Notes: generated by a model from the letters alone, not told the origin. A stretch of 62,863 nucleotides of DNA from Rhizaria sp. SCN 62-66 (GCA_001724265.1 MEDY01000146.1:1-62863); one strand, 5' to 3'. Shown: positions 1-62,553, counted from the first letter of the stretch. A program made the numbers and translations.

Positions 1-1
1 T

Positions 2-6000: not shown

Positions 6001-9000
6001 CAGGTACTGCATCGACTTACAGCAATGTTGCTGTCGCGGTTCCGCACGCTCTCCGCGTTCGCGTGGTGCCGACCTGGCCCCAGGACGCTGTCCTAACGCT
6101 ATCCGTCAACGTCACTAGCTGTGGCGTCGGGTTTGCCTACTTGAGTAGCGACGCTTAGCCCGCAGTCCTTGACGATGCGACGCCGTATACGGGCACGTTG
6201 ACGACGCCCAGTGGAGTTCTTATTCCTGTGGGTGCTGATTTCTTTCCGCGCATCAACGTTACAGTTCCAGCTGGCATTGATACAGTCTACGCATTCCTAA
6301 GCTGCGTCACTGTTGCGCATTACATTGCGGTGACGTTGGGTCCTAGTGACTCAAGTACACTTTTCACAAGTATGCACATTACAGGTGCATTTTCTGCGCG
6401 CAACCGATTTGAATTACTCAACCCTCCTGAGAAGTTACATGCACGTGAGCCCGTTCTAATGGAGCTCGGTATACTACCTCTAGGCGCAATTACAGGCGCT
6501 GGTCAGTCGACTGTGGTGCGTGCGTCAACAAACTCGGCGTTTGCCAATTGTTCCGTTGCACGCGTGTCAGGTTCGAGCTCCATGGTACCTGCAGAAGCAC
6601 TGTGGGCACAGGTTAATAACACAGCATCAGTTCTGCTCACGATCAGCTCCGCTAACGCTTTCTTGCTGTGGGTGCGCTGCTGGCAGCACACCGTCACCAG
6701 CGCGGGAATTCATGTTGAAGGCGCAGTTAAGCCACAGTTTAAGTTTGAGTATTCAAGTGGAATTGCATTTCTGCCTTCATTCAGCGCTGAGTTTGAGGTG
6801 GTGTATATTGATTGCGGTATGATGTCTAAAATGACTCATGGTAACATTGTCTATGAGGACAACGGCTTTGGTTCAATGGCGTTTCTTGCACGAGCTACTG
6901 CATACTGTGAAACTGGCTACGATTTGGTGACATATCTTGGAAACGTGGTGACTTGTGCGATGCCGCCGTGCACGTGGAGCACTGTGTGTCAGGCCACAGG
7001 GTGGAGTCAGACCGCGCCAACATGCATAATCCACAACTGCGGGACAACGCCAGTGGCGGACAACAAGACGGCATCGGGGCCCGTGTCCGCAGCCACTGGC
7101 GATGACGGTGGCAAAACAACTTACGGTGCAGTGTTAACGTATGGTTGCGTGGAGGGCTTTGAACCCACAAGCACTACGACGTCGTTGCGCTGCACCGCCA
7201 CGGGCTGGTCGCAGTCCACTGTACCGACATGCACTCCCGTGACATGCCCGGCGCTGACAGCTGGCGCGAATACGCTTCAGCCGATATATAGCACGAATCC
7301 TAACGGTATGCCTCGCTATCTCTCCGTCGCGACGTATGAGTGCTTACCAGGTCATACACTGAGCTCAGGCAGTCTGACCGCCACATGCCGCGCTGATCGC
7401 ACATGGAGCGGCTCATTACCTGTATGCCGCACGAACATGTGTCTGTTAATCTCACATGAAACAGCGTCGCAAAAGCCAATCAGCTTTACGCTTAATGATA
7501 AGGCTACAACTGTAGACAAGACCACCGGGTTTTTCTTTGTAGGCACGATTGCAGAGTACAGTTGTGCCGATGGTTATAGCTGGATTGATCCCACTGCGTC
7601 GCATACGCGCACGTGTGTATACAACGAAGGTTGGCTACCGATAGCAGCGCCGCGCTGTCAGCCGGTGTCGTGTCCGTCTCTTGAGTCAATATTTCACGGC
7701 TCAATCAAGCAGGAACCTGCAGAACTTCTGAACCTTTACGGGGTGACTGCAACGTACACATGTGACTACGGCGCCACTATTATACCTCAGGGCAACAGCA
7801 TTATGTGCAATGCTAATGGCACATGGTCTTCAGTGCCACGCACCTGTCAACCGTATCAGTGTCCTACTCCAGCTGCGTTTGTAAGCGGTCAGGTGCAAGA
7901 GATTATAACTGGTTCTAACGGACAGTTTTCCAACAACTCAATAATTGAATACCGCTGTAACGCGGGACAAAATCTCATATATCCTGGTGTCAACCTCGAT
8001 ACAAAGTATTTTGTCTCTCTTATTACGAGTACAGGTGTGACAATTGAAGTTGGCCGCCGTGAGTGCACGCCCAGTGGTTGGTTCCCCACAACTCTACCGC
8101 AATGCCGTATCAACGAGTGTAGCGCGCTAGCAGGCACAAGCAACGTCGCATCTATTTCATACTTTAACGTTAATGGTGCCCCGACGCCGCAATACGGTAC
8201 CGTTGCAACCTATGCCTGCTCCCCAGGTTACGAGACACGTGACAGCAGTGACAATATTGTCGACAACACGCGTCTCTGCGGCTCACGTGATCAGGGCTGG
8301 TTGCCAATCGATCCTCCCCGCTGCCTCCCGATTGACTGCGGTAAAGTGTCGAACACCGTAATCAATAATGGGTTACCGATCGAGTTAACATGGGACGAAC
8401 TTGCAGTCAAGGGTCCCACGCGACTTGGTGCTACAGTCACCTACACCTGTGAATTAGGTTTCGCCTTCGTTAACGGGAATGGCAGCTTTACGCGTTCATG
8501 TAGCGCTACAAGACAGTGGGTTCCTGCTGAACCAACTTGCTCTGACATAAACGAATGTAATCCCGCAGCTTTCAATGGAAAGTATTTTGTCAATTGCACA
8601 CAGTTGCATGGCGCGCATTCGCAGTGTATTAACACTTTTGGAAGTTACATTTGTATTCCAACAGTAACAACCACGCCATATTTGCCCTACGCACCCTCTG
8701 GCGGTGCATCATTTAACGCGCTTGAAAATGTGTTCACTCCTAGCAACACCGCCGGCGGCCAGCACATCAAGTTTGCCGTGCGCTCCGGTGCAGGTCTTGT
8801 GGAGCCATACTTTAACCGCGTGCGCTACATGAACCCTGACAAGGCGCTATATGACGACCCATTATGGCTCCAGTATGAGTGCACAAATGTCCAAGTTACT
8901 GTAGCAACTACAGCTGCGCGCGCTGCTGTCGGATTTGATTACTACGACGTATCATGTAAGTTGTCACCTGGTCAGGGTGAAGGGCTGTTTGTTTCAGTAC

Positions 9001-12000
9001 AGTACTGTGTTGCCGTGCATGACAGCGACACTCCGGACTGCTCACGCTGGAACTGGGACTGGCAAGGTACTCGCAGCGCCCTTGATATTGAGCAAGTTCC
9101 GATCAACAAGCGCCTGCGCGTTACATACCCAATGACTGCGTTTGTCCCACGCTCGCTTCAAAGTGTAACGGTGAACGGACTTACACAAATGACATCAGAC
9201 TATGTTAGTCAGACCTCGCTTGGTGAGGACATTATAATGTCTCTGGGTAACTTTTACTTGGACAGACCGCAGCTAATCTCGATCTACTATGGTGAAGCAA
9301 AGACAGAAACAGACTTCCTCTACATTTGCGATTTTAACTATAACCTGGCAGTGAGATACAGCAACTACGCGCTTGTTGTCGCGTGCCACACTCAGGACCG
9401 CGTGAACTTAATTGATCTCCGCTTCAGGCTTTGCATTGCAGGGCGTTGCACAGTGTCTACTGATATGTACTCATACCCTCAGATTCCTGAAGTTACGGCT
9501 GTCTATGGCTGTGCCATCGACGACCTTATCAACGGCCGGACTTACGGCTGCCCCACTGACGGTAGCAATGTGCGTCTCACAGTTACTGGCTCAGGTTTTC
9601 TTGAACCCCTGACAACGATTATTAGCGGCCGCCAGTGTGAGTCTCTTGAGCGCGCTAACAACACGTACTTCACGTGTTTATTGCCTGTTAGCGCTGGTGA
9701 GGCGTTGACCGTTACTGTTAAGGCAGGCTCACAGCGCACGGACTCTCGCAACCGCTTATCGTACGCTGGTCCTACTATCACAGGCATTCGTGGGTGTGAG
9801 CCCGTTTCTGATGTGTATATTCGCGAGTGTAACCGTCTTGGCGGCAACAGGATTGAACTTACTGGTCAGAACTTTGGAGCCTCTGGGTCGAACATAATGG
9901 TTGGTGGTCAGACATGTTACAACGTCATTCATGACTCAATGCGTCCACACGAGCGTGTAACCTGTGTTACACCCAGCGGTTTTGCTAGTGAGCGTACAGT
10001 CACGTTACTGCAGCGCTATGGCACAATGTCTCTTCAAAACATCTTGTTGTCGTACGTGCAATGCCCTCCTGGCCAGTTTAGTGTGGACATTTTATGCATG
10101 TCATGCAAGGTGGGCAACTTCAATGACCTCTGGTCACAGAGCGCTCGCCGTCAGTGTGCGCCTGGGCTTTATGCAAACACAACAGGCTCCATTAGCTGCT
10201 CGGTCTGTCCCGCTGGCCAATACTCTGTTCTCGGTGCAGGGTCTTGCAAGGTGTGCCCGCGCGGGAGCTTTTCTGGTGCCCGTTCTGGTTCGTGCTCACA
10301 GTGCCCACCTGGTACCTTCGCTCAGTATGAGGGCTCTTCAGTCTGCGAAGCTTGTCCACTCGGTGCTGAGAGCAACGAAGACTATACTTTTTGTCGTTGC
10401 AGTGTGGGCACATATATGGATGTCAACGGGACGTGCGTTGATTGCATGCTTGGTGGCGACTGCACATCTCCCGGAACCACCATCTATAACATTGAATCAC
10501 TACAAGGCTATGCGCCGGCGGTAATCCGGTATGAGCGCGACAGCGTCGTACGCATGCAAATTTACGTTTCGACAAATAGTACAAATGACGATGCACGTAA
10601 GATTTCACGCGCTACTGTAATTAAACTGTTGTACGATAACACTGAGTTACCGTTGGAGCGTATCTTGCTTGTAGATCTCGAGTTTTCAACAGTAGACAAG
10701 ATCAATGTAGCTTTAATGGCTACAAACAATATCATAGAAAGCTCTTCTGGCAAAATTAGCACTGCACGTTTTAGCAGCAACAACAACAACAACAACAGCA
10801 ACAGCAGCAATGATAGTAAAAACTCTCGTTTCACCGCGTCGAGTAATGATGCTGTTATAATATCCGCGCCACATGGGTTGGTTGCAATTGTCGATGTTGA
10901 CGTATACCCGAGCGCATCTGGCGCTTACACGCTCGAGAACTCGAGTGATGCGCTGTACCAAAGCATGGTTGATCAGATTAACAAAAACGCAGCTTCGATG
11001 TTATCAACTAACGGAGTAGCCGTTCTAACCGGCGCTGGAATAGCCCGCAACTCTGAGTTCAAACGCTATGCAACGCCATCATTTGAGTTGTGTATTAACA
11101 ATGCGTGCCGCGGCAAAAATGTATGCCTCGAGGGTCACACAGGTAACCTCTGTGCAGTCTGCCTTCCTGGCTACGGCAAGACCTCTTCGTTTGAGTGTGC
11201 GCGCTGTAACTCACCAGCTTTGCGAACGTTCCTGTTAGTACTCGCAGTTGTGGGGGCAATTGCAATTTGCACAGTTCTGGTCTGGAAGCAGATCGTGGAT
11301 GGCAAGCAATCAATGAACGAACTCCCCGCGCCGGCTGTACCGTTGTTGCTTAAAGTTGCTACCTCTGGTCTGCAGGTGATGTCGATTGCCGCGCGCTATG
11401 ACTTGCAGTGGCCTGGTTTCCTTGCCGATGTCTTTGAGACTGCTGACACAGCCGGAGGCGTCGGTACAGCGTTCTTATCACTTGACTGTTTCCTGGCCGA
11501 CGATCCGATTGTTCATCCTTTCTGGGTGACTACAATTAGCATCATGGTGCTACCGCTGGCGGGCGTCTTGCTTCCAGCAATAGTGTTTGTGCCGATGTAT
11601 TTTAGCACACGCCGCCGCTACCGCAGAGAGCTAATAGCGCAGGCTGTGGAGGAGCGCGCGCTGTCAGCCGAAGTTGTATTGGAGCTTAAAGCAAACCAAA
11701 AACGTGACCGCGGTGAGAAGTTAAAGCAGCGCCGAGCAGAGGCGGAGCGTGAAAATAAGCTTGTATGGGAACTAGTTGACGAGAAGGTTGGAATTCTTAT
11801 CAAAGACGCACCTACCCTTGATTCCACCCCCAAAAAGGCCACCGCTCAAAGCACACACAATGTTAACAGCACAAAATGCGGAGCGTCCTTGGTGCCCACC
11901 ACTGCTCGCACGCTGCAGCATGGTGGTTACGTTAGCAAGAGCTCTCTTCAACGGACAAAAAGTTCTAGTGTTGGTGATGGTGACAGCAACACTCGCACAG

Positions 12001-15000
12001 TGAGTGGTGGTAAGAGGCGTCGCGTTATTTCGAAGCTGCGCACAGTTAGCTCTGTAGGCGATGCCGAAAGGTTTCCGCTACCGCCGCCAATTCTTCCGCC
12101 GGCTCACATTTATGCTGACCAAGACGAGGCAGACGAGGAGTGTGATAATAATTTGAGTGAGTTTGAGAACATGCATGTAGCTGCTTCTGAAACTATGTGC
12201 GGCTCCAAGCCCACACCCACGGCAAATAACTTTGACACCGGCTCCGGAGCTACTAAGCTCCAGAGTAGATATGCATCGCCTGTTTTTGGTGCAGTGACCA
12301 TTTTGGATGAGAGTTTGTCGCATCTGCCAACATCTCCTGGCCGTGACAGTCAGCGTCAGGCGCTGCTTGCGGCAAAAGCAAACGCGCCTTTCATGCGTCC
12401 AAGTCTCCGTTGGCCCACAACAACCACGATCAAGACGGCAGTTAGAAGCAACAGTCCGTTAACACAGCAGCAACAACTGCAGCAATTGCCGCATCAAAGA
12501 CAGTCACCATCAGTTAAACCGTTCTTACATCCGCAACAACATTATTATCCGCACTCGCTTGATGTGAGTCGTCCCGACGACGATACCAGTAGTATAAGCC
12601 GTCCCAGCGCTCAAGGGAATGCATTTTCTCCGAATGATGAAGTATCATGGCGTAATGAACGTGCAATGCGTGCGTCAGCGCATCTTACGACACTGTCATC
12701 CTGTGCTAGTACCGCTGACATTAATCAATGCAAGACTTCTAACCTTGTGGTAAATCCACTTGCACTAAGAACAAACAATGTGGCTTCTGTTGACTCAATT
12801 GCGCCTGAACCTGAGTTTGAGCCCAATGTTTATGCTGATACTAGAAATGAAGATAGCCACGATGACGGAAAAGATGGTGGTGTCAACGCAAATTCATCAC
12901 CGTCTACTATTATGGACAGTGATGACGCAGATGGTCTACATATTCCTTCCAGTATCATCGAACATGATGAGAATAATGAACATAGCATGAGCGGCAATGG
13001 TGATGCCTCTCACCGTGCCCGCAAGACTGTATCTTCTTCTGACAACCATGAATCATTTGCAACCCCAGTGATGCTGCAGGTACGGCAGCCAGAGGAAGAG
13101 CCAGCAGCTTCAACAACGCAATTCTCAAACACCCGCATTATTGTTCCGTGTTAAGCCTTCCGGGAGTAGCCACAACTAATACGCGAGGTGACAAACCATC
13201 GTTTGCGGATGAGGACGGCACTGATTTAGCCCTATGTAAGTTTGAACCAATCGACGTGTGCGACCCTGCCCTCATTCTCGATGATTTTGCTGTGGACATG
13301 CGTTACAGGCTTGACAACGCTGACATGGCAGAGGGCGTGTACGCAGCCGAGCTTGCAGCGGCCACGCGCGGCAAAGAGCATGAGCTGACCGTTTGCGCGA
13401 AGTGGGTTGCACTCTTTAGCCACTATCGAACAAGCGGTGGCGACTTTGACGACGCGCGTATTAAGGCAGCCGCCAAAAAGCATGTGGCTGCGGCCGACTC
13501 AAGCTACGAAATTGCAAACGTGCTGCAGGACGCGGCTGACATGGAGAACGCTTTCTCAGTCTCTTGTGAGTCTGCGGAAACATTATATGATGCCGAGATA
13601 TTGCGAGAACAGACAATCCGCTATGAACGCACACTCGAGCGTGCGCGGGCCCACAAGCAACTTATGTGGTACCTTGCGACATACGGTGACAAGAAAGGCA
13701 AGGAGATGTTTGAAGTTGCCCGAGAACAGCGCGCAAACGCTGTGAAGCCGCGTCTTACGCGCGCTGAAATGCGCAAACAGCTTTATGCTGCAGAACATGC
13801 ACTAAACAACGTCTTTTCTGAATTTGCTGGATACATCATCACTGCAACCACCGTCGTTATGTTCATGATTCACCCGAACATCACGAGACAATTCTTTATG
13901 GTTTTGTCCTGCAAGAGCATCGGTGGCACCGCAGATCCTGGAGCCAAGTTTATGTTGGGCGACCTTAGCGAGCCATGTTACTCGTCATATCATGTATTGT
14001 TCATTCTTGTCCTGGGCGTGCCCATGCTCATCCTTTGGGTCATCGGGATTCCGCTGTTTACCTGGGGCATTTTGTATCGCAACCGCGCACTTATCCAGAC
14101 ACCACCCACCGGTGCGTCAGACATTATGCGGGCACAAAAGAAAGTGTTCGAGTCGCAGATGGCGTTCCTGTACCGAGGTTACAAACCCACGCGTTACTAC
14201 TGGTTCCTACTCGAAATGTTCCGCAAAGCTGCACTTGTTGCTATCGCGGTATTTTTCCCTGGCGCGCTGCACACACAGCTTATGATGGCGTCACTGCTCA
14301 TTTTTGTATGTATTCTTGCGCAAATCTTTGCCAAGCCGTTTGAGAATCGCATTCCAGGTGCCGTAGAGTTTCTCTCGCTGGGTACATCTTTTATGATCTT
14401 CTTTCTTGCCAACTTCCTCTTTGTTGACACAATCTCACACACTGCCAAGGTTGTGGCGACAATTCTAATTTGCGTGCTTGTTATCTCTTTCTTTGTCATC
14501 GTTGTTGCAGCGTTTGTGGTTCTTCAGCGTGAGGAGCTGCAACTGGCACCGTTACGCCGTCAGCTACGCGAAGCATACATTCTCGGCCATGATATCCCAC
14601 AAGTGATGCGCAGGTGGCGACAAGACCAGCTCCGTGAGCGCAAGGAACGCGAGACTAAGAAAGCTCTTGCTGCTACCAAGCACACCACGTCCACAGCCGC
14701 AGCTGTTGTCGCTGCGGCCGCCACGGTCACAAGTATAATGAACGGGCATACATCTGAGAATGAGGCTAAGGCCGTTGCGCGCCGCGGCCACGACGAGGTG
14801 CTTGTGCTTGGCACTGGCGCCACCCTTGCTTGGGCCCGTACGCTTGACCTCGTCCGTGACGATGCCACGCATGCGAGCGTCGGCGTGGAGGCGCTGATGC
14901 GCGAGGCGACGTTGACTGCGGCAGCAGATGCGGCGAATCGGGCCACTGGCGAAGGCCGCGAGCTTGGCGCCAGCGACGGTGGTAATGCAGCGGAAGATGC

Positions 15001-15091
15001 AATTGCAACCGCAAAACTGAGGCGTTACCAGCAGGATGCCAACCCAGAGATTGTTGTGAATCTCGCATCACCGCCTCTGTATCTACCCTAA
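2..15091 (+). CDS. Giant multi-pass membrane/cell-surface protein (about 5,000 aa, 5'-truncated): beta-rich region, two-Cys repeats, 8 Sushi/CCP, Ca-binding EGF, IPT/TIG, Cys-rich CxxC repeats, multi-TM C-terminus; has one in-frame TAG and two apparent frameshifts
   Basis: ORFs 20..316, 285..6158, 6198..13154 and 13148..15091 form one continuous coding-like run. 285 and 6198 share a frame and are separated only by TAG 6156-6158. Sushi C..YxC..C...W....P.C x8 (~6810-8540); CSDINEC...CINTFGSYIC (~8540-8655); IPT-like LTVTGSGF and IELTGQNFG; CxxCPxG repeats (~10060-10450); GHTGNLCAVC then TMs (~11230-11600 and ~13820-14525) with FLYRGYK..YYW. Ends TAA. Confidence 0.85.
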
Positions 15092-16725
15092 ATCGAACAT
15101 GACAACCACCACATTAAAGGTATCCATAGATTTATCCTTCTACATGCATCGTCGAGTGTGTTTGTTTGTGTAATTTCGAACAATAAGGAGTTTGTTGCCG
15201 AATGTAAATTGTTGCATGCTGCGCGGCATTACACATATATATCGCGTTATTCTGTTTTGGATGTTGTTTTCTATTTGTTTTATCAAAAAATAATAGTCAT
15301 TCGCTGACTGTTTTGAATTATTCTGGGTTCAATACTTATTCTTGATCGCCTCCTTTGTGGCCTAACTGTACATGAAGCTTGAAATCACTCAAGTGTTTGT
15401 TTGCGTTCCAACGAAGATTGTATTTGCTATGAACTCGTTTTTAATTTCTTATGTAAGAATCATCAATCGGCCTAAGCTGTGCCAGTGCGTATAAGTGCTA
15501 TTCGTGTTGACAAGATACGCTATTCTTGCACAACATAAACGGCTGGCGCACACCACACCACACCACACCACTCCACACGTCGCTGCTTTCATGCATTGCG
15601 GTATATTGTTTATTGTTTGTTCGTTTGTTTTTGTCTAAATGTTGTGTCGTCTGGCAGTATATACGTATTGCTCCTGCTTTCCTTCCATCATGCTGGTTTG
15701 TTGTTTGTTTGATTTTTCCCCCTTACAAGTTTGTTTATAATGACAGGTACCTTCGATCACTATGTGGAAATCGCTTCATTCTCAACGTAACTACGTGTAG
15801 GTATAAATGGTTTCTGAGTTCCATGGTATGCTGTTGCTGCATTTGATATGTTCCTGTAACCGGACGAATCCTTATTGAGCATCAAATGTTGCTTTCCGTC
15901 ATCTCGTAGACTGTATTTTCTATTGTTGTCTGTATATTTTTTCATGACATTTTCTTGTGTCCAAATTTTCTCAATGACTTTAAGTTTACGTTATTTAGTG
16001 AAAATTACAAATATTCTCTCCGCCTGTGCAGCCGCTGCACCACGTCAAGGTGAACTGAAAATACATTTTTGTACACCAATATGTGTAATCATCAAGCGAA
16101 GCGTAATATTCCTGAGGGTATATACGGATATATTACATACTTTTCACCCCGAACTGTCGGCTATTGGTGTGCTTCATGACACTGATGTGACGATCACATG
16201 GTCATAGGTTACGAACAAAAACAAGTCGTAACGCGGAACCAATCAAATCGAAGAGATATGATGTGAAGAGCTAAGGTATATGCAGCTAATACACATTGTT
16301 TACGTTTTAAAATAATCTGTCATATAAGAAAACACTGCTTAATTTTGTGTCGCCCGCTGGCAAAACGTCGGCAAAATTCGAAAGTCCTTGTTTTGAAATC
16401 CTCTTGTTGATGTCTGGTGGTGCGAGGCGAGGCTGATCACGACTGATAGTCGCTGACGTGACGTGACCAAACCAATGGGCGAGATATGGCGATTCCAGAG
16501 TCGGAATAATGGCCAACTTCTACGCGTCATTACAGAGATTCTGAATGATGTTAAGAGTCTAAACTAAACGGGATGTATTAATCATAAATTAGATTTTAAT
16601 TTCAACATGATAAACCTTGTCAACGAAGGGTCCGAAATCTTACCACCAACGCATCGCGCGACCCGACCACCCTCTCATCCGCTGCATCTTGTCATCTTTT
16701 TCCCCTTCATTGTCTTCCTGCTCAG

Positions 16726-32590: not shown

Positions 32591-32622
<32 letters not shown>

Positions 32623-33282: not shown

Positions 33283-33317
<35 letters not shown>

Positions 33318-34230
33318 CATCTCTGCCTCTGTCTCTGCAGCAGGGCCTCGTGAACAACGGCGTCGGTATCAGCCCCTGTGGCGCCACCGCGAGCAGCCAG
33401 CTCACCGGCGCGCTGTCTAGCCACTCGGACGCCCCCAGTTGCGCGCACAGCATCTTCACCAGCAACCCTAACGCGCCGGCGCCGCTGCTGATGGCGTCGG
33501 TGGGCGCGGGCGCCGGCAGCAGGTGCGCCAGCCCGGCCGCGGGCCGCTCGCTTTCCCCGACGTTCGGCACTGGGTGCCGCTCGCCGCGACAGAGCGACCG
33601 CGGCGTCGTCGGCGACCGCGCCTCCGCTGCCGCCGCCGCTGCCGCCGCTGCCTCGAACGGCAGCGGCAACGGTAACGGTAACGGCGCGGTGAGCGTGAAC
33701 GCCGGCTTCAGTGCCCACGTGACGGCACCACGCCTGACCTCGCACCACACCGCCGACGCGCTGGCACGCATCAGCTCCAACCTGCTGTCCGCGGCCTCCC
33801 CGTCGCCGTCGCCGTCCCCGCCGCTGCCCTCCGCGCACCTCCACCCGCCAGGCCACGGCCTCGGGCTCGGCTCCAGTGGCTTCTCCGCTTTGCCGTCACC
33901 GGCGCGTTCCCCCACACCGCTGCAGCAACAGCCGACGATCCCGATGCCGTTCGTGCACCCGCTCCGCGTCGCCGCGTCGCCGCGCAACGTCCTCGCCGCC
34001 AACGCCGCCGCTGTGATCTCCGGCAGCAACGGCGCCGTGTCGCCGCGCAACAGCGTGTTCCTGGCGCCGCACTCGGCCGCCGGCAGCGCGGCCAACGCGC
34101 CGTGCGGCAGCGTCGCCGGACAGGCCCACGCGCAGGCCGCGGCCGCGGCGGCGCTGGCGCACCACCACAGCTTCAGCAGCAGCGGCGGCAGCAGCGGCTC
34201 GAACGCCAACGCGAGCTTCAACGCGGGCGC

Positions 34231-34265
<35 letters not shown>

Positions 34266-38300: not shown

Positions 38301-39085
38301 CCGCCGTTGCTGTTGTTGTGTCCTGAATATTAAAAGTTACATTCGCGAATTAATTGTTTTAATTAATCAATGATGTACCAGACTTTTGACTGGGGTTACA
38401 ACAACGGGGGTTACAACTAATTGTTGCGACTGGCGTTGCTGTTTGAAACTGTTGCTTGCTCAGTTTCTTTCTTTTCTAAGTCTTTACGTTTTAACAATCT
38501 CACCACCGCGCAAACACTCGCTTGTGTGCTTTGTGTCTGCGTGATCATTTCTCGTGGATGTGTGTGTGGTGTCTCCAACAGGTCTCCAATACATGTAATG
38601 TTTTGAGCTCAGGAACTTCTTCATCTGATGCATATCATCGCAAAATTAAAAACATGAAGAATGGTGTGTTTGTGATTATGTCGGTATACATTGTGAAACA
38701 AGTTAACATTACTTTTCGCAGAAATCCCTCCTATAAGTTGCTATCATCGTAAATGTGTAACTCTCGAGTCACCGACCATCGCTGATCGCGGTCACCAGTC
38801 TGCAGGCGAACCGCCTCATCGGTCAAGCCCAGGAACCAAATAAAACGAGGGACACGAACATCAAATTCAACATGATCGAACTATAATTTAAAGATTCCAT
38901 TCAATAATGTCGAAATTATTAAATATTTCACATATGTCTCGCCTGACGATCAAATACTCTCGCAATATCTGTTTTCTTAATTCGTCCTTGTAGGGTAACG
39001 GCTTTTGCCCATTTGCCTCCAACCAACCTCCCTGGCCACACATTCAACATCGGTCTCCTGTAACTGACACGCGCGTACAGTCCGC

Positions 39086-45000: not shown

Positions 45001-47440
45001 CTGCGCGCTGCCGCTGGCCGTGATCCCGGACGTGTCGTCGCTGCCCGCGCTCTTCGCGGGCCCGTCCACGGCGCCGTTGCTCACCGTCGCGCCGGCCGCC
45101 TCCAGCGCCGCCACCGCGGCGACCACGACGGCCACGACGACTGCGGTAACCACGACGACGACGACCACGACGGTGGCCGTGCCCGTGGTGGGCAACGGCA
45201 GCAACAACGGCCCGACCCCGCTGGCGCTGCACCGGTTTGCGGGGCTGCTCCGAGACGTGGTCCACGGCCTGCGCGACTCGCTCACGGGCCCCGTCGCGTT
45301 TGCCCGGTTACTCGTCGTGCAGCGTTCGCTGAGTCTGTTCCCCGACGCGCCCGTGCCGGCGCAATGGGGCGATGTCGTGGCCGTGGCGCTACAGAGCGTG
45401 TTCGACGTGCTGCACGAGCGCGCGCACGTCTACCTCTCGGGCGTCCGGCTCAAGATGACCGACGAGAGCAGCATGCAGGCCGCGCTAGACGTGCTGCACT
45501 CGCGCTGCAACATGCGCGGTCGCGTCATGCAGCAGCAGCAGCAACAGCAACAGCAGCAGGGGCAGGCGGGCGCGCAGTCGCAGCACCCTGCGGGGCCGCT
45601 GGCGGCCGCGTCGCCGTTCAGCCCCAACGCCACCAAGTCGCTCGTCAGAACTGCGAGCGGCAGCAGTAGTGGGAGTGGGAGTAACTTCGGTGGCTCTATG
45701 ATCGCAGCGCACGCGCTGGCGACCCGCAGCTTCCGCCACAATCTGTCCTCGCTGACCGACTCGCCGTACGACCCCTCGCTGGCCGACGCGGCGCTGTCCA
45801 CTTTGATCCCGGCCACGCTGGCGATCGCGGCTGTGCAGTCTCTGTTCCGCTCGGGCGGGTACCCCGAGACCGTGACGACCTACTGCCTCACGCTGATCGA
45901 CGCCGCACTGCTCGTGCGGCTCGCGGGCGGCGGGCTCATTCCCCCGCCCTCGCTGCCGGGCCCCGGCACCGCGGCGGCAGCGTCCCTGCTTGCCGTGCTG
46001 CCCACGGTCAACCCCGGAGACTCCTTCACACCTGCCGCGCCCTGGGCCGCGGCCGGTGGCGGCGAGGCGGCCTTTGCGGCCCGCGTCCGCGCGGCGCAGC
46101 ACCAGGCCGCCGCAGCCGCAGCCTCCGCCGCCGCGCCCGGCGGGAATACAGGCGGCGCGAGCGGCGGCGGCAGCGCTGCCGCGGGCGGCTTCGGCGCGAC
46201 CGGCGGCGACGTCACCGGAGGTGTGTTTGGCGCCGACCGGTACAACCACTCAGCGGCATCGGTCGCGGCGGCCGCCAACACCGCAACGGCGGCGCTTCTG
46301 CCGCCGCCGTCGCCCGCGGCCCAGGCGCAGCGCCTGCGCGTGATCGCGACGCAGCACGTCCTGGCCTACTGCGAGGCGCTGGCGGCCGAGCGCGGGCTCG
46401 AGCGGGGCGGCAAGGATGACCTTTTCGTGCACTTGTTCGCGATGGGCACCGACGAGCCCCCCGCCGCACCGCTACACCGCCGCCGCTCCTCCGCGGCCAC
46501 CGCCGCCGCCTTTGTTGCCAACGTCAACAACACCAGCCACGGCAGCGCCGGCGCTGGGGCGGCGGCGACCGAGGGCGACAACGTCGCGTCGTCTGCGCTG
46601 CTCTCGCCGTACGCCACGGGATCGATTAGCACTGTGGAGCTGCGCCGCCGCATTGCGGCCGTGCCGGCGCTGCGTTCTGCGCTCGGCGACGACAGCATCG
46701 CGGCACTGGCCGGCGCCTTCGACCTAGACGGCAGCGGCCGGCTGAACCCACGCCAATTCGCGCGCGTGTTCGCCCCCGAGGCGCTCTCGCTGGCCATGGT
46801 CGAGCTGGACGTCGTGCTGCTGTGCGTTGGCGCTGCCTGGCAGCAATGGCGCTGCCTGCTGCACGCGCAGCTGGCCGAGCTCTTCGCCGCCGCCGACGGC
46901 GACAAGGACGGGCAGTTGGGGCTCGACGAGTTCACGCTCGTCGTCACTCGCGTCGCCGGCGGCGGGGACAAGAGCAACAGGCAAGTCCTGCTCATGTTTA
47001 CCGAGGCGGTCCGCCTGGGCGACGTCGGCTTCGACGCTGTCGACTCGCCTGAGCCCTTCCTGTACGCACAGCAGCAGCTCGGCGGGAGAAACGGCGCCGG
47101 CGGCGGCAGCGCGCGCGCGGGCCCCGTCACGACCACGCAGGGCCTGGAGACCCTCGGCGACGGGCTCGTGGCCAGCATGCGCGCTGACAGCAGCAGCAGC
47201 GACGCTGCGGGCGCCGGCGACGGGGACGGGGACGGCATCAGCAGCTCCGACCGCGTGCGCTTGCCTGCGCTGCTGCTGGTGGCGGACCGCTACCGCCTCG
47301 GGCTCTCGGCCACCGCGACAGCGCCGACCAACGCAGGGCTGCAGGGCATGGTCGACCGCGTCGCCGGGCTCGTGGCAGAGGCCGCGGAGGCCGAGGGCGC
47401 GGCGGCGGCCGCCGCGGCGGGTGGGGCGCGGCGCCGGTAA
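39086..47440 (+). CDS. Giant low-complexity coiled-coil protein with C-terminal EF-hands, about 2,784 aa, with one in-frame TAG (41558-41560)
   Basis: ORFs 39086..41560 and 41621..47440 share a frame, with open GC-rich codons between them (xNPFLTELAAHDGETVSLSLAV). EF loops DLDGSGRLNPRQF (46721) and DGDKDGQLGLDEF (46895); coiled coil LKRQNADLQRQVEELQGSVRRLE. Ends TAA. Confidence 0.75.
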
Positions 47441-47893: not shown

Positions 47894-48524
47894 TTACTGG
47901 TGGGTGGCGGAGCGGCGGGGCACGAGGATATCCTTGATCTTGTCCAGCGGCTGGCCCTTGATCAGCGACGCGATCTTGGCGCAGCCCAGGTGCAGCAGCC
48001 CAGGGATGTGAAGGTAGAGTGCGCCCATGGTGACGTCGTACAGCAGCTGGATGCTGCGCTCGTGGATGCCGTCCATGAAGACGGCGTCGTTGGCGTCGGG
48101 GCACACCTCCTGCAGCAGACGGCTGCGAAGCGGCTTCTCGACGTAGGGCGCCTCGGTGCCGTTGTGGCGGTTGACGTAGGACGTGATGGCGTCGAGCACC
48201 TCGCCGTCCAGGTCCACCTCGATGTCCACAGCGTTGGGGTCTGGAAGCGCAACACAAAACAAAAAGGGAGATCAAAAATGCAAATTAAAGTGTGTTTGAA
48301 CAGTGGTGAGTAAGTGAGGTGGGGATGGGGTTCGATGGGGAGGCATGCGTAAGTGGAAATATGGAAAGGATCTGTGGGCCTGAGGTGGGATGGTGAGGGG
48401 ACATACCTTGCTCAAGAGCAGAGACGACGAAGCCAGAGATGGAGGCAGCGCGGCGGGAGATGGTGTACGAGGCACCGTTACGCTTGGAAACAAGGCGGAT
48501 CGGCGGCTGGTTCTCCTTAGACAT
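47894..48524 (-). CDS. Skp1-family protein (BTB/POZ-like plus partial dimerisation region), 154 aa
   Basis: Exons 48524-48407 and 48240-47894. IRLVSK..ISRRAASISGFV, VEKPLRS, LYDVTMGALYLHIPGLLHLGCAKIASLIKG match the Skp1 pattern (AANYLxIxxLLxxxCxxVAxxIKG). Ends TAA. Confidence 0.88.
48241..48406 (-). other. Spliceosomal intron (166 nt), Skp1-like gene
   Basis: Minus-strand GTATGT...TCCAG, phase 1 (G|AC), joins the two Skp1 halves in frame. Confidence 0.88.
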
Positions 48525-48982: not shown

Positions 48983-51013
48983 TCAATTCTCTTCTGTGTT
49001 CTTGTCCGCGGCTGCCGCCGCCGCCGCCGCCACCGCCGCCGTGGCCGCCACCTTGTTCGCCACCTTGTTCGCGCGCCCCATCTCCATCTTGACCGCGGCG
49101 ACCGTTTTCGCGGTCTCGATAAGCCTCTGCACGCCCGCCGAAGCGCCGGCGCGCGCGTCCTCGGCCGCCGCGAAGGGGATCACCTGCGGCGTCTCGCCGA
49201 AAACGCGCCGGAAGTCGCGCAGAGGCACGGTGAAAAAGGGCTCAGAGAAGAATGAGTAGTGGGAGTTCTTGAGCGCGTAGCGGGCGCGGGAAGGGATGAC
49301 GTGCGCCACAGGGGCCGCCACAGCGCTGTTTTCAGCGCTAGCCGTGAAGTTGCTGTGTGCGTTGTGTGTGTTGTGTGTGTTGTGTGTGTTGATGCGTTGA
49401 GGCTTGTTCTTGTTGGCGTTGCTATGAAGGTTGTGACTCGCATTCTGCGCTTTCTTAGCGTTGTTAGCGCTGCTGTTGTTGCCTTGGTTGTGAGCCTTGC
49501 TGTCGTCATCATTATCATCATCGTCGCCGTCGCCGTCGTCACCATCGTCGTCGTCGACACTGTCAGAGTCATCAAGCATACTCTGCAGCATGTCCATCGC
49601 GCGCCTCTTGGCCCGCACAACTTCGTCGACATCACCATTGCCAACACCGTTACCACCAGCAGTACTCGCCCCCGCCTCCGTTGTCTTGCCACGCATCTTC
49701 GATGCAGCGGCAACAGCGATAGACCCAGTTCCAGCGGCTTTGGCGGCATCGGCGCTCGATAGCGACTGCAAACAGTGCGCTGCACAGTGCGCCGCACATT
49801 GCGCTGCTGCGAAGTCGGCGTTGCGGCGCAGCACGTCGCGCACAGTGCCGGACAAGCCCACGGACACGGGCTCCGCGTGGCGGGTACCGGTGAGGCTCGC
49901 TCGGACGGTGAGCGCGCTCGCGCTGAAGCCTTCACAGCCAACGACGGGGGCAATGCCCGCGAGGCTTAAGCCGTCCCTGCTGCTGATGTCACTGCGACCG
50001 TGGGAGGCTGATGCGACAGCGGAGTCGAACGCGCGAACTAAAGCCGTGGTTACGGACGCGGGCACTGGGATGAGCGAATCGTGCGGGAGACCATCTGAGG
50101 CGGCGGCGCCGCTCGTGGTAACATATGAGGCGCTGGCGTGGTGCTGCACCACATAAAGCTGCTGTTGTTGCTGCTGGTGGTGGTGCTGGTGTTGCTGCTG
50201 GCGCTGGTGGTGGCGAGAGTGCTGTGGCGCGGTGCTGACGAACAGCAGTGTGGGCACTGAACACTGCGAGCGGGCACAGTCGAGTGTGACGAGCGTCGTG
50301 TAGCCGCTCACGGTCACCGCAACACCACCAAGCGCCGCAACCGCGGTTATAGTTATAGCCGCAGCCGCAGTCGCCGACGCTGCTTGGCGAGCGGGGTGGT
50401 GGGTGTGCCACAAGGTGCAGCTGAGGAGGCCGTCATGGCTGAGACCAGGGGCTGCACTTGCACTGTCGTCGGTTTCACTGGCGGACGCATCCGTGGACGC
50501 GACGGTGCTGCTGTGTGTTGGAATTCGGTGATACATGCTGAGATACACTCGCAGCACGTTCTTCTCACTGTCACCAATGACGCTCGCACGTGCACATCCA
50601 CTGCTACTGGTCGCGGTCGTGGTCGCGCCATTGTTGTTGCCACACAGGGTACTCCACGCGACCTCGCTGTCCAGGGCCGCGCTGGCCCCGTCGACGCTCA
50701 GGCCGGTAACCACCGCCGTGCGCACAGTGTCTGCCGACTGTGAGAGGAGCGGGGCGAGCGCGTAGCCGGCGAAGGTGGCGCGGTGACGGGTGTAGACGGC
50801 CAGGCAGAGCGCGGCGACATCGGCCCACAGCACACGCACGGGCGGGGGCACGCTGGGAGCGAATGCGGGGGCGGCGGGGGTGGCGGCCGTGGCGGGAGCT
50901 GCGGCGGCAGGAATTGCGAAGGTTGCGGACAGACGCCAGCTCTGGGGGATACTGCAGAGCATGACAGGACTTGAAACCGTGCCAGTGACCAACTGAAAAC
51001 GAAATGAGTCCAT
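48983..51013 (-). CDS. Hypothetical protein, 676 aa, low complexity
   Basis: Long ATG-initiated ORF with GC-rich coding composition, bounded by AT-richer spacers; ends TGA; no family recognised. Confidence 0.7.
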   Translation of the reverse strand: MDSFRFQLVTGTVSSPVMLCSIPQSWRLSATFAIPAAAAPATAATPAAPAFAPSVPPPVRVLWADVAALCLAVYTRHRATFAGYALAPLLSQSADTVRTAVVTGLSVDGASAALDSEVAWSTLCGNNNGATTTATSSSGCARASVIGDSEKNVLRVYLSMYHRIPTHSSTVASTDASASETDDSASAAPGLSHDGLLSCTLWHTHHPARQAASATAAAAITITAVAALGGVAVTVSGYTTLVTLDCARSQCSVPTLLFVSTAPQHSRHHQRQQQHQHHHQQQQQQLYVVQHHASASYVTTSGAAASDGLPHDSLIPVPASVTTALVRAFDSAVASASHGRSDISSRDGLSLAGIAPVVGCEGFSASALTVRASLTGTRHAEPVSVGLSGTVRDVLRRNADFAAAQCAAHCAAHCLQSLSSADAAKAAGTGSIAVAAASKMRGKTTEAGASTAGGNGVGNGDVDEVVRAKRRAMDMLQSMLDDSDSVDDDDGDDGDGDDDDNDDDSKAHNQGNNSSANNAKKAQNASHNLHSNANKNKPQRINTHNTHNTHNAHSNFTASAENSAVAAPVAHVIPSRARYALKNSHYSFFSEPFFTVPLRDFRRVFGETPQVIPFAAAEDARAGASAGVQRLIETAKTVAAVKMEMGRANKVANKVAATAAVAAAAAAAADKNTEEN

Positions 51014-51248
51014 GTTTGCGGAGTAAAGACGCCTGTTGGCGCGGACGGGGTGACACGAGAGAAGGTTTTGTAGAGCTTGCTGTGGGGACTGGACTCTGCT
51101 TGTGGCTGTGGATGAGGTGGAAAGAGGCGAGACAGAAAATAAGCGATTATGACTTATAACAGTGTTTAGATTGAATTTCTAAATTAATTCATATAGATCT
51201 CTCAATTTTACACTTGTTTCTCTTTTTGAATTTTCAGTACACGGACGA

Positions 51249-54200
51249 ATGGACCAATTTGGACGGTCTCTTCGATTCTCGTCAGGCACTGCCACGGCAG
51301 CTGGCGCGCGAAACGGCGGACACAATCTTCCGTTCCCAAGCTCTTCCACAGTCTCAAACCCGCCAATGCACTTTACCACCGCCTCTGCGACGGTGCCTCC
51401 CAACAATTCGACGTCGTTATACGGCCCGTTTCGCGCGTCCAACACCGTGCCGGTCGCTTCCGCGTTTCCCCTCGCCACGGAGCGCGCGCCCCTCTCCCCG
51501 TCCTCCTCCTCCGCCCTCGCCTGCTCTGCCATAGCTCCCGCCCGCGGCGCCAGCCAGCATCGCGGCCTGTTTGCCACCCCCGCGGCCGTCACCATTGCCC
51601 CGCAGCACCCGTACCCCGTGCTGCCCGCGTACGCGCAGGTCTCTTCCCGCCCTTTGCAAGACAGCGCCACATCTGCCGCCTTCCCGTTCGCCGCCGCTGC
51701 GACCGACAGAGCGTCCCCGCACGGCCCTCACCCATACCAGCAGCAGTCCTGCGTTGTGGGGCTTGGCCAGAGAGGCACGGGCGCGCGCGCTGGCGCTGTT
51801 ATCGGCGCGTACGTGACGCCATACGACGTCGACGTGCCTCCCGTCTTTGCTCCCAGCAACACTGGCGGCCACGCGCGCGCTCTGAGCGATGACGCTGCCG
51901 CTGGCGCTGGTGCCGGCCACGTCGAGGCTAGCGGGAGTGTCGGCGTTGCTGGCGTTGGAGAGTTGACCACCGGTGCACTGTTCCAACCTCAAAGCAGCAA
52001 CTCTAGCAGCATAGGTCACAGCCACCGTCACGGACCGAGCTGCAGTCCCAGTCATAAGAGTGCTGCCAGCGCTGGCATCTTCCATGCCAGCCAGCAGCAG
52101 CAGCCGATGCTGATGCCGTCGCCGACCGAGGTCGAGAGTGAGGACTGTTACCTCATCCACAGCCCCAGCCGCGCAAGTGCGAGCCCCAAGACCCGCCGCA
52201 GCAGCAGCAACAGTAGCGCGGGCATGCGCGCGAGTGCGAGCGGTGCGACCACTGGCGCCGCCGCGACTGGCGCTGCCGCGAGTGACTACGACGAGGACGA
52301 AGGCAGGGACACGTTTTACCCCAACCCCGACCAGTCCGCCTTTGGGTCCCCCTTTTCACCCCTCAACAACAACAACACAATAATCCCCACTCACAGTAGA
52401 CTCAAGGGTTCTGGCACGAAGGCGGAGCAACAGAAGCAGCAACAGCAGCAGCAACAGCAGCAGAAGCAGCAGCAGCAGCAGCAGCAGCAGCAGTCTACTA
52501 CCCCCGCGTCTGTCTCCTCCACGACGAGTAGCAGTCCTGCCGAGCGGCCCCCGCAGCCGCCAATGTTCTGGTCCCCGCTGCCGGAGCCGCTGGCCTCTGC
52601 CCCGCGCCACCGGCCCCCGCTCACCCACTACCACCTGCGGCCCTCGCTCTCCGCGTCGGGCACGGACGTGCTCACTGTCATCACGACCCACTTCCCGCTG
52701 CTCACGGTCACGCTCGCGGTGCCGCGCACAGTCACGCACACGCGCGCCGTGCCAACCTTGGTCCCCGTCGCCGTCCCGGCCACCAAGTACGTCGCCGTGC
52801 CCTGCCGCAGCAACAGCACTGCGGCCAGCGCTAGTGCGGGTGCCGGTGCGCGCAGTGTCAACGGGGGCGCGGCGGTGGTCCGCGAAACGACTGTGGTGCC
52901 TACGGTCAACAGCCGGTGGGTGCAGCGGCTCGTGCCGGGCCGCCACACGGGCCGCTGGAAGGCCGCCACCGTGCAGGAGTTTTATGTTAAGCCGCGCAGT
53001 GTGACCACGCAGCGCGTCGTCAACACCAATTTCGGCAGCGATAGCCCGACTGCGAGCGGCCAGGCGACGACGGCGAGCGTTGAGGCGCGGTTCCACAGCA
53101 ACAATGGCTTCCGCATGGAGCCGGTGCAGGGGTGGGACTTGTCTGTGACCGAGGTGACGCAGCAGGTGACCGTGAGCGGCGTTGAGCTGGCCCAGGAGCA
53201 GCGTGTGCAGCCGCTCGTGGTGCAGGAGGTGCGCAAGGTGCGGCTGCCGGCGGGGAGCTTCGTCGTCCCGGAAGGGCTCGACTGGGAAGGCGCGCTGTGC
53301 TACGACGACAACAACAACAACAGCAACAATAACAATAGCCCGACTGGTAATCACCCTGATAATGCAGTCATTATCCCTGCTAGCCGCAGTCGGAGGAACA
53401 GTGTGACCCACGATTACTTCAGCAGCGAGACCGACAGCGTTAGTGCGAGTGCGAGCGCGAGCGGCCGTAGTGGCAGCGGCGGCGGCGGTGCTCAGCATAA
53501 CGCGGAGGAAGGCTGGTTTGATGTGTACCGTGACATTGAGAGGCAGCAGCAGCGTGAGCGCGAGCAGCATCAACGGTATATCGAACAACAACAACAACAG
53601 CAACAACAACAGCAACTTCTTCAGACTCAGCAACAGCAGCAGCTGGCTCGGGCTCTTCAGTCACAACCGTCGCCCGAGTCGCCCAATACTGCGGCCAGCG
53701 ACTTGACCCTGTCAGTGCATAGCTCCAACTCTAACAGCGCTGAGCGCGATGCTGCTCTTGCCACCCACCAGCATCAACAGCATCAACAGGCACATGAACA
53801 TCACATGCTGCTGCAGCAACAAGAGCGTGAGCTCCGGGAGCGCGAGCGTGAGCATCAGCAGCAACAGCAACAACAGCAACGTGAGCGTGACCGTGAGCGT
53901 GAGCACGGCTGGCAGCGCGTCTCCCGCGGCTCGCCAGCGTCGAAGTTAAGCCGCCCCGACTTTTCACTGATTGCACGGCCTGACGTCGATCTGACTGGAG
54001 ACAACGCTGGCGCTGCTGCCCATGCACACAGTCACTCTGCTTCTGCGCACAGTCACCCGGTGTCGATCTCAATATACACTGGCAATAGCACACATGTGAA
54101 CAATTCGAAGACGGTGTCTCACACCAGCTCGAATAGCCACAATGGCAACAAGGGCTGCTACAACAAGAGCAACAACGACGGCGGACGCGCTTCTCACGGT

Positions 54201-56891
54201 CACGGCCACGGTCACGGCCACGGCCACGGCCACGACCACGGTCACGGACGCGCTCACACTTGTAGTCACATTCGCAGTCGGAGCCGCAGTCGCCATGGCC
54301 GCAAGCACACGGGCCGTTATGAGTGTAGCTGTGATGGCAACGGCGAGCGCGAGGGCGACCGCAGCAGCAAGAGCGTGGCCACTTCTTGTCCCGACGGCTG
54401 CACTTGCGCTCAGTCTCCTGTTGCGGCTGCTGCTGCAGCAGCTGCGACCGCTCCTGTGACGGCGTCTGCGACTGCACCTGCTAACGCAACTGCGCGTACG
54501 TTTTCTGCTGTGCCCACAGTTGCGCCTGCAGCTGTGCCTGCGACACCAATGCGTGCGTTCCCCGCCCCAGTCTCTCTTCACACACCCGTCTCTGCCCCTG
54601 TTGCTGTCCCCGCTTCGTCTCTCGTCACTGCCCCGACCTCTGTCCCGGCCTCAGACTCTGCACCTGCATCTACCATTTCTGCTGCTGCTCCTGCTCCTCC
54701 TGCTGCTGCTGCTGCTGCCCCGACCAACGCCTCCTTGCAGCTCCCATGTGACGTCCGCATCGCCGGCTGCGGCTGCGCGTGCCACCCGCCGGACGCCGCG
54801 GCCGTAGCGTTGGCGACCGTTGACGTCGCCGCCGTGGACGCGGCGGCGACGCAGAGGGCCTTCGAGGACAAGTGGCTCAGCGACAAGCTGCTCTTTAGCA
54901 GTGGCAAAGCTGAGGCGGGGCTCCGTGAGAAGCCTGCATGTGCAAGTGATGTGAAGCCTGACGATGGTGGTAACGCCGACGCTGCTAGTGCCTCTGAGCG
55001 CAAGGACGACACCACCGCTGGTGTTGCTGCTGTTCACGACGATGAAGACGATGGCGATGACGATGTTCCTATTATGAAGACGGTGAAGGCAACGATCCGT
55101 CTTCCGACCAATCCCAACACGAAAACAAACGTTGACACTAACAGTAACAGCGTTTGCAGTGCAACTCGTGCGGCTGGTGTGAGCAGCAAACACTATGACA
55201 CAGAGCCGGCTCCGCTGCCTCTCAAGAATGCAACTGTTATCGCTACCCCAGCTCCTGCTGCTGCCTCTGTTGCTCAAGTTGCGACTGCGAATCCCGGCAC
55301 CAGTAAGACGAATGTTGCTTACAAAGTGGCCCATCCTGCGTATGCTTCGCATCTCGGCGCGAAGCACGGCCGTCTCAGCGCTCCTTACACGGCCGCCGCG
55401 CTGTCGAGCCTGACTGCGACGCACGTCGACTTAGGCCCTCCCCCGGCCGGTCTCCTCCCTGACACCGGCATGAACGTCAATACTCAGAAGGAGGACAACA
55501 CGGTTCATCGTCGTGCTCGTCGCATGAACATGGACAAGGTCAGCGACTGCGATTGTGGTGTCGGCTCAGGCCGTGGCGGTGGCCACCGAGGCTGCGGCTG
55601 TGGCCACGGTGGAATTGTGATCACCTCTCAGTTCACGACGACGACAGCATCAGCCCAGAGTGCTGCGCCTGAGGCACCGCCCGGTGCTGTTCCATCCCAG
55701 GTGACCTCGAACTCTGCTAGTACTGAGAACTCGAGCAGCTCCACCAACACTGTCGCAGCGACTGCAGCAGCCGCGTCAGAGGTAGCACTCAAGGCCCGCG
55801 CGTTCGTGCCCCCGCCGCCCCACGTGGCCACGGCCTTGGGCCTCATGGACCACGGGCTGCTCTACCACGGCGGCGGCCGCGGCTTGACTTCCGACGCAAC
55901 CACCGCAACCGCAGCGAGCGGCTTGACTTTGGACCAACTGCAACAGCAGCGCCAGCGTGAGATCACTGTGCGTCTGCCATCTGTCGCGGTGGACGCCGCG
56001 CTGTACCACGACGTGTCGCTGTCGCCCACGGTCACCTCGAGCACGATCCCGTCACTGCCGCCGAGCGCGCGGTCCCACTTACACGCTTACTTAGACGAGC
56101 AGGACCGCTTAGACGGGGAGCTGAACTAGTACCTAGAAGAGAGCGGGTACTTAGATGGCAGTAGGTACTTGGACAGCAACAACGCTGGCGGCAGTCACAG
56201 TGCACGGGTCTACTCTGCGAGCACTCCCAGCGGCAGCGCCAATGCTGGCGCGGGCGCTGCTGGCGCTGGCGCTGGCGCTGGTTCTGTGGTTACAGGCCCT
56301 GGCCTTACGCCAATCAAGCCGCCCACTGCGCCGTACTCGTACTACCACCCGTCAGTGCCTGCAACTGCAAGGACGAACACGAACACTGGCACCGCCGCTG
56401 CGGAGCCGGCGATTGCGAGCGGTGGTCCTTCAGTGCAGGAACTGCTGTATGAGTCCAATCTTGCGCTCAGCAAACGGATCGAGGAGCTGACTGAGAAGCT
56501 GAGCCAACATAAGACCCGTCAGGGCCAAACTGCAACTGCTCAGGCCGCCGCTCTGGCGACGGACGCAAGTTCGAGCGCCAGCGGCAGCAACATATCTGCG
56601 GCAAACGCCTTTCGCAGTGCTTCGGTGAGCAACAGCAGTGCGACTGTTTACTCTCGTTTGAGCAATAGTGCGAGCTCGCATTCCAACAACCACAGCGGTG
56701 ACGTCAATGCGACTGCGATGTCAGGGCCATCTTCATCTTCATCTTCACTCACTCAGCCGCAGTCGTCTTTTTTGAACCTTTCTTCAGAGCTGTCGTCGTC
56801 TCTCGCTGCGATGCTGAGCGACAACGCTGCGCTTGCACAGCAGGCCAATGACAGAGCTGCTGCGCTCCGTGCGGGACTGCAACGTAACTGA
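51249..56891 (+). CDS. Large low-complexity protein with a Val/Pro/Thr-rich beta segment, about 1,880 aa, with one in-frame TAG (56127-56129)
   Basis: ORFs 51249..56129 and 56169..56891 share a frame with open codons between them. A YL[DE] motif recurs on both sides of the TAG. C-terminal coiled coil VQELLYESNLALSKRIEELTEKL. Ends TGA, followed by an AT-rich spacer. Confidence 0.75.

Positions 56892-62512: not shown

Positions 62513-62553
<41 letters not shown>

Follow-up and report, generated by a model that had tools for sequence, protein, structure and literature searches.

Does UAG still end translation in the organism behind the DNA stretch MEDY01000146.1:1-62863, recorded as Rhizaria sp. 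SCN 62-66 (GCA_001724265.1)? This stretch of 62,863 bases, referred to below as the window, holds three genes that are each interrupted by one in-frame TAG and then stay open in the same frame. The sites are TAG1 (6156..6158, + strand) in gene A, TAG2 (41558..41560, + strand) in the orphan gene E, and TAG3 (56127..56129, + strand) in the orphan gene H. At each of them two stop-to-stop open reading frames (ORFs) of the same frame abut, namely 258..6158 and 6159..13154 at TAG1 (1966 and 2331 amino acids), 39068..41560 and 41561..47440 at TAG2 (830 and 1959 amino acids), and 51183..56129 and 56130..56891 at TAG3 (1648 and 253 amino acids). The initial annotation had placed the three TAGs and the 2331, 1959 and 253 further open codons correctly, and had proposed that UAG is translated while UAA and UGA remain stops. 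Decoding of UAG as an amino acid, with UAA and UGA as terminators, is found here to be the most likely explanation, with a probability of about 0.6. It is supported by coding continuity, the homologues of gene A around TAG1, the presence of TAG2 in two studies, a CAG/TAG difference in an RNA-library contig and the lack of a TAG terminator in the window, and it is the best explanation, though not an established one.

Across the 16 exon pieces of the window, which comprise 17,433 modelled codons, TAG occurs in frame three times and TAA and TGA not at all, corresponding to an in-frame TAG rate of about 0.17 per 1000 codons. Out of frame, the identical 16 pieces contain 222 TAA, 184 TAG and 617 TGA. 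The ten gene ends are exclusively TAA or TGA, as had been claimed: seven are TAA, at 15091, 26536, 35341, 47440, 47894 (- strand), 57333 (- strand) and 61244, and three are TGA, at 26976 (- strand), 48983 (- strand) and 56891. The surroundings of the two groups differ as well. The 150 nucleotides that follow have a GC content of 0.29-0.48 after the ten terminators versus 0.55-0.68 after the three TAGs, which agrees with the earlier remark that the latter lack an AT-rich spacer. The base in the +4 position is a purine after nine of the ten terminators, and the TAGs read TAG-C, TAG-A and TAG-T. An unbiased scan of every stop on both strands accepted those that end 60 or more open codons with coding signal and precede a drop in GC. 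It returned 15 sites (seven TGA, six TAA and two TAG), which consist of eight of the ten known terminators, two stops just within introns and five antisense artefacts; both TAG sites are antisense ORFs within genes B and D. Paralogous copies of the TAG flanks were sought and none was found.

The continuity of coding across the three sites was assessed with a codon-usage log-likelihood model trained on the TAG-free genes. The score is positive in the gene frame past each of the three TAGs; for gene H the fall comes only beyond the TGA at 56891. The first in-frame ATG lies 71 codons beyond TAG1, 115 beyond TAG2 and 196 beyond TAG3. Over these ATG-free stretches the gene frame scores +4.9, +78.8 and +100.3 bits, respectively, and the other frames score -38 to -156 bits. 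Because coding signal extends over such distances without an ATG, the downstream parts are not separate ATG-initiated genes; in gene H, a start at the ATG after TAG3 would leave just 57 codons. Codon bias is undiminished downstream of the TAGs, genes E and H have one TAG each and zero frameshifts, and the window holds no older, multiply broken genes. Neither an AG/GTACG donor nor an AT-rich tract, as seen in the introns of the window, lies near any of the three TAGs. The initial annotation had allowed for splicing at these sites, and in the window sequence no recognisable intron donor is apparent near any of them.

Gene A is the one interrupted gene with informative relatives. Two proteins, P0004 (7463 amino acids) and P0005 (7487 amino acids), are unbroken over the TAG1 region and share 71% and 50% identity, respectively, with gene A over the searched region. 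The identity between the window and P0004 is 0.73 downstream of TAG1 versus 0.59 upstream. With P0005 as the outgroup, lineage-specific changes in the window and in P0004 number 131 versus 127 upstream and 130 versus 105 downstream. The downstream part thus has no significant excess of changes, and by this comparison no significant decay. The relative-rate counts together with the higher downstream identity to P0004 indicate that purifying selection has acted on gene A past TAG1 during practically the whole period since the split. Gene A is clearly coding and conserved, yet its codon-usage score is near zero when the model built on the other genes is applied. TAG1 itself is situated inside a stretch of 36 nucleotides, or 12 codons (6132-6167), which belongs to the lineage of the window only and is lacking in both P0004 and P0005. 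By eye, this stretch partly resembles the 24 nucleotides directly after it, and an imperfect local duplication is possible.

A second irregularity of gene A was missed by the initial annotation, which had stated that no other break is seen. That statement is correct for in-frame TAA and TGA, with zero in 17,433 codons. At 302-317, however, the frame of gene A changes: frame 2 carries the homology to P0004 up to 301 and frame 3 carries it from 318, and frame 2 meets a TGA at 314-316 in the context UCG-UGA-C. No intron explains the change, as there is insufficient room for one. An assembly fault close to the end of the contig and a genuine frameshift are both possible. The conserved frame would also be regained by a +1 shift at UCG-UGA-C, which is conceivably what the change represents.

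The reality of the TAGs was addressed with Logan contigs from four runs, aligned to 40800-57400 (16.6 kb), a region that covers TAG2 and TAG3. TAG2 is contained in an X1 contig (40800-44258) and, in another study, in an X3 contig (40861-42103), both with 0 differences. Since independent contigs of two studies agree, TAG2 is not an assembly error. TAG3 is contained in an X1 contig (54201-57400), again with 0 differences; X1 is possibly the source sample. The X3 and X4 pieces listed include none that bridges TAG3, and an X4 piece ends 6 nucleotides short of TAG2. In the polyA RNA library X5, contigs flank TAG2 on both sides, and depth is low over the spacers. Public predictions split gene E at this point: P0007 (824 amino acids) is a database ORF ending at TAG2, and P0006 (1939 amino acids, given with a GTG start) begins 22 codons past it and was seen on four contigs. 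Taken together, the DNA evidence upholds TAG2 in contigs from two studies and TAG3 in one run, and the corresponding confirmation in RNA is missing from the listed pieces.

Among the pieces listed, the differences reported on the 16.6 kb are four single-base changes and one 3-nucleotide deletion. One of the four creates a fourth TAG (41867..41869, + strand), where a CAG (Gln) of gene E reads TAG in one X5 contig with a depth of 2.8 of 4.8. The window and the DNA runs have C at position 41867, and this single contig of the polyA RNA has T, a library of a third study. If TAG encodes Gln, the change is a synonymous transition; otherwise it is a second nonsense allele of gene E, and at such depth the T could also be an error. 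The three other single-base differences are AAC to AAT, which is synonymous, GCG to CCG (Ala to Pro) and TCG to CCG (Ser to Pro). The deletion, at 56256, is in frame and falls within GCN repeats that gene H has past TAG3; it is present in X4 and X5 and not in X1 or X3.

Several observations weigh against translation of UAG. The sample is small, with three sites and ten terminators, and if TAG were to end 20-25% of genes (an assumed share), the probability of seeing it at none of ten ends would be about 0.06-0.11, so that its absence there is just mildly unusual. The two conserved genes of the window, encoding HMG-CoA synthase and Hsp70, contain no TAG. No residue can be aligned to TAG1, because it is placed in a lineage-specific insertion, and TAG1 and the frame change of gene A could together mark a young pseudogene. 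No relatives of genes E and H were detected in either protein library, which leaves homology unable to confirm that each is a single gene. Region 700-1000 of gene E matched only the window's own ORF P0006, and a HMMER search with the 601 residues around TAG2 gave three proteins, two of which are the window's own ORFs, and no true relative; the third match, P0008, is an unrelated repeat protein and was rejected. For region 1480-1902 of gene H, none of 8000 scored candidates passed. No RNA contig bridges a TAG among the pieces listed (32 of 7,723). The variant at 41867, seen in one contig of depth 2.8, fits a nonsense allele equally well. A tRNA scan of the window found no tRNA gene, an Rfam scan gave no hit, and eRF1 is not among the genes of the window. 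Finally, under the codon usage of the window 58-62% of the single-step nonsense paths yield TAG, and the probability that three random nonsense mutations are all TAG is 0.19-0.24. The argument that only TAG occurs in frame, made in the initial annotation from a correct count, is therefore weak. The continuity of the frames past the TAGs exceeds chance by far, whereas the exclusive occurrence of TAG does not.

This leads to the question whether the three genes might simply be dying under the standard code. In that case genes A, E and H would carry young nonsense alleles or be recent pseudogenes, truncated so recently that the downstream parts have not yet decayed. TAG being the commonest single-step nonsense outcome fits such an origin, as do the additional frameshift of gene A at 302-317, the nature of E and H as fast-evolving low-complexity orphans, the other TAG variant of gene E in a different sample, and the slightly higher number of changes in the window lineage past TAG1 (130 versus 105). 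However, it needs three of about 11 genes to have died independently and very recently. The 2331 + 606, 1959 and 253 codons downstream, about 5,100 in total, have acquired neither a second stop nor a frameshift; their codon bias is intact, and gene A is best conserved past TAG1. Moreover, no older gene wrecks are found in the window, and TAG2 is fixed in samples from two studies. Recent gene death is therefore considered unlikely, albeit the strongest of the alternatives.

Leaky readthrough confined to the three sites comes next and is likewise judged unlikely. UAG would then still be a terminator genome-wide, and a near-cognate tRNA would be accepted at these positions frequently enough for selection to maintain the extensions, making UAG an ambiguous stop/sense codon. 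The pyrimidine that follows two of the three TAGs (TAG-C and TAG-T), compared with a purine after nine of the ten real stops, is in line with this alternative, and ten terminators cannot exclude TAG ends elsewhere. Yet shuffled sequences are as structured as the 130 nucleotides past each TAG (z = -0.92, +1.15 and +1.01). The contexts TAG-CCC, TAG-AAC and TAG-TAC were given correctly in the initial annotation, which had reported neither the CARYYA nor the CUAG motif in them. The presumed extensions would constitute 55%, 70% and 13% of the respective proteins, including conserved domains and the membrane part of gene A. Extensions of this size and conserved content require decoding that is near-complete and not leaky.

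A third alternative, RNA editing, would convert UAG to UIG by adenosine-to-inosine (A-to-I) deamination, to be read as UGG (Trp). In filamentous ascomycetes, according to the available text of the reports, dozens of genes have premature UAG codons that undergo stage-specific repair, and the repair is limited to premature stops of the UAG/UAA type in genes that are otherwise intact (PMC10776026, PMC11156358, PMC4817773). At TAG2 the A and the G are predicted to lie inside a 3-nucleotide hairpin loop closed by U. On the other hand, only one of the three sites is in a loop, and the local folds are not better than those of shuffled sequences (z = +1.04, -0.96 and -0.96). No A-to-G change at the sites was reported for the RNA library, in which no listed contig covers them, and the sole RNA difference that touches a stop runs in the opposite direction, from CAG to TAG. 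The giant Sushi/TIG/Ephrin_rec_like gene is one that we take to be unlike an ascomycete, which also counts against editing. As far as the sources at hand describe it, no group other than the ascomycetes is known to have this system, and editing is regarded here as improbable.

The last alternative, tiny in-frame non-canonical introns or artefacts of consensus assembly, is highly improbable: inspection of the sequence allows GT..AG segments of 21 or 33 nucleotides, both multiples of three, to be placed around TAG1, and TAG1 is in the 36-nucleotide window-specific insertion, but all six recognisable introns are 134-184 nucleotides long with an AG/GTACG donor that has no likeness near the TAGs, the TAG flanks are GC-rich with coding signal, removal of the 33-nucleotide candidate deletes residues conserved in P0004 and P0005, and independent assemblies concur at TAG2.

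If UAG does encode an amino acid, how might this be achieved? UAG would no longer be an effective terminator, and genes would end with UAA and UGA. The simplest mechanism would be a tRNA carrying CUA as its anticodon, which would pair with UAG and not with UAA, probably alongside an eRF1 that recognises UAG poorly. The rarity of sense UAG (3 in 17,433 codons) and its absence from the two conserved genes would fit codon capture that is at an early stage or proceeds at a low level. The initial annotation had considered the amino acid not assignable, and this holds apart from the one weak hint at 41867. Based on that single CAG/TAG difference and on precedent, Gln is the leading guess.

A more far-reaching proposal, which is offered tentatively and remains doubtful, is that the window captures stop-codon capture at its earliest stage, in a eukaryotic lineage not sampled before, with UAG out of the terminator set, barely entering genes, and with CAG/TAG polymorphism among strains. 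The TAG sites are found in unconstrained low-complexity stretches and in a lineage-specific insertion, and UAA dominates the gene ends despite a GC content at third codon positions (GC3) of about 0.85. In its boldest form, the proposal could mean that internal stops are generally not read as stops, including the weak-context stop in the UCG-UGA-C of gene A.

If sense decoding of UAG is true, the organism would be unusual in being a free-living, GC-rich eukaryote of the environment that is not a ciliate and in which sense UAG is extremely rare, and the possible CAG/TAG polymorphism would be a further unusual trait. It would provide a natural test of codon capture, in which a codon is first lost as a stop and then taken by a mutated tRNA. 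The proteome of the organism would be mis-annotated wherever TAG occurs, as exemplified by the public predictions P0006 and P0007, which cut gene E at TAG2.

The window contains zero N and about 11 genes, most of them on the + strand. Its exons are strongly GC-rich and its introns and spacers AT-rich. Six recognisable GT..AG introns of 134-184 nucleotides, five of them AT-rich, amount to about six per 52 kb of coding sequence: 22057-22215, 24244-24399, 25501-25684, 30635-30816 and 13080-13213 (or 13080-13240) on the + strand, and 27802-27645 on the - strand. Their donor is uniformly AG/GTACG, with CAA/GTACG at 30635. The apparent frame changes at 13080, 22057, 24244, 25501, 30635 and 27802 (- strand) are ordinary spliceosomal introns, and the third intron of gene B (25501-25684) splits one PTPlike_phytase domain exactly. 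The GC-rich exons, together with AT-rich GT..AG introns that have a strong AG/GTACG donor, establish the DNA as eukaryotic nuclear. A trypanosomatid origin, considered at first, was dropped in view of the introns.

Gene A (1..15091, + strand) is present with its 3' two thirds and encodes a giant protein of the Sushi/TIG/Ephrin_rec_like type whose C terminus is TRP-like, ending with TAA at 15089-15091. A profile search with the giant protein found no relative, with 198 pattern matches in metagenome_contigs and 38 in genome_contigs, none confirmed. Gene A is followed by gene B (16600..26536, + strand, TAA), which encodes a multi-domain PTPlike_phytase protein and has the introns 22057-22215, 24244-24399 and 25501-25684, the RCC1-like gene C (26976..29416, - strand, intron 27802-27645, TGA), and gene D (29466..35341, + strand, intron 30635-30816, TAA), a low-complexity orphan. 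A 3.7-kb AT-rich spacer (35341-39015, GC about 0.35-0.43), far exceeding the other spacers in length, separates D from E. On the + strand it has a strong excess of T over A (AT skew -0.28), and it lacks both long ORFs and Rfam hits.

Gene E (39068..47440, + strand, TAA) is a low-complexity orphan of 2790 codons with a weak EF-hand match at its C terminus. The stretch 40500-47500 is present in bioreactor, wastewater and activated-sludge metagenomes from several studies. The last exon of the small gene F (47894..48271, - strand, TAA) has a weak, sub-threshold match to Skp1. Gene G (48983..51178, - strand, TGA) is an orphan, and gene H (51183..56891, + strand, TGA) is a low-complexity orphan of 1902 codons; D, E, G and H are the long low-complexity orphans of the window. 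Gene I (57333..59111, - strand, TAA) shows a weak match to a Nup35-type RRM, gene J (59604..61244, + strand, TAA) encodes HMG-CoA synthase, and gene K (62096..62863, + strand) encodes the N-terminal 256 codons of a cytosolic-type Hsp70, cut by the window end; J and K have zero in-frame stops. An exact 60-mer from the Hsp70 end had 0 matches in metagenome_contigs and in genome_contigs. Atlas searches with HMG-CoA synthase and Hsp70 led no further than Eukaryota, with Ascomycota and Chordata the commonest groups, and in PDB the best hits were from plant and human. Most genes have a GC3 of 0.82-0.88, compared with 0.69-0.73 in C, G and H and about 0.5 in gene A. Chlorophytes are not known to have the mevalonate pathway, and the HMG-CoA synthase gene of the window makes it unlikely that the organism is one of them.

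How does the window compare with known systems? In nuclear codes, UAA and UAG nearly always change meaning jointly. Codes in which UAG alone is reassigned are described from a handful of lineages in the available text of two reports, among them a rhizarian with Leu and Iotanema spirale with Gln, as the initial annotation had noted (PMC5304391, PMC11687900). The literature searches made yielded no code variant in a wastewater eukaryote. The Amoeboaphelidium code (UAR = Gln) was rejected as a match, as TAA terminates in the window. In Condylostoma, Parduczia, karyorelicts, Blastocrithidia and Amoebophrya, internal stops are decoded and termination depends on context; such ambiguous codes, as far as described in the sources at hand, involve UAA and/or UGA too, whereas UAG alone is found in frame in the window. 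The restorative editing of ascomycetes, in the same partial view of its literature, shares with the window that intact genes are interrupted by UAG-type stops alone. Programmed readthrough in viruses and animals shares an in-frame UAG followed by an open frame; the window differs in having no downstream structure or known motif, and in extensions of hundreds to thousands of codons with conserved domains. The green alga Scotinosphaera is reported to read UAG as Ser and to keep UAA as a stop, in the accessible part of the source (PMC11687900).

Among the UAG-only codes with Gln, the excerpts of the two reports list Iotanema spirale, Protocruzia tuzeti and two phyllopharyngean ciliate lineages, and the mechanism they predict is that tRNA-Gln(CUG) gave rise to a tRNA-Gln(CUA) (PMC5304391, PMC11687900). 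These systems and the window would be alike in that UAG is sense and UAA is a stop, and the hint from the window is the CAG/TAG difference. They differ in usage: so far as these excerpts go, UAG is common in the Gln systems and occurs at conserved Gln positions of conserved genes, whereas it occurs 3 times in 17,433 codons of the window and in neither HMG-CoA synthase nor Hsp70. The type of genome is different as well, the window being GC-rich and intron-poor with giant genes.

The sainouroid rhizarian exLh translates UAG as Leu and, in the data given in the accessible text, terminates 56 genes with UAA, 15 with UGA and none with UAG (PMC5304391). The window resembles it in that its in-frame stops are solely UAG and its gene ends are dominated by UAA (seven UAA and three UGA). 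In exLh, the same text counts 384 in-frame UAGs in 71 genes, scarcer in highly expressed genes, compared with three in the window (PMC5304391). Sainouroids are described as coprophilic, and a paper on wastewater plants discusses Rosculus, as far as the text at hand covers them; for the window, a sainouroid origin is no more than a lead from the literature. On the other hand, the window offers no support for Leu, and comparisons of its HMG-CoA synthase and Hsp70 do not place it in Rhizaria. Decoding of UAG in the window would thus be a further UAG-only nuclear code variant, unusual in the rarity of its sense UAG.

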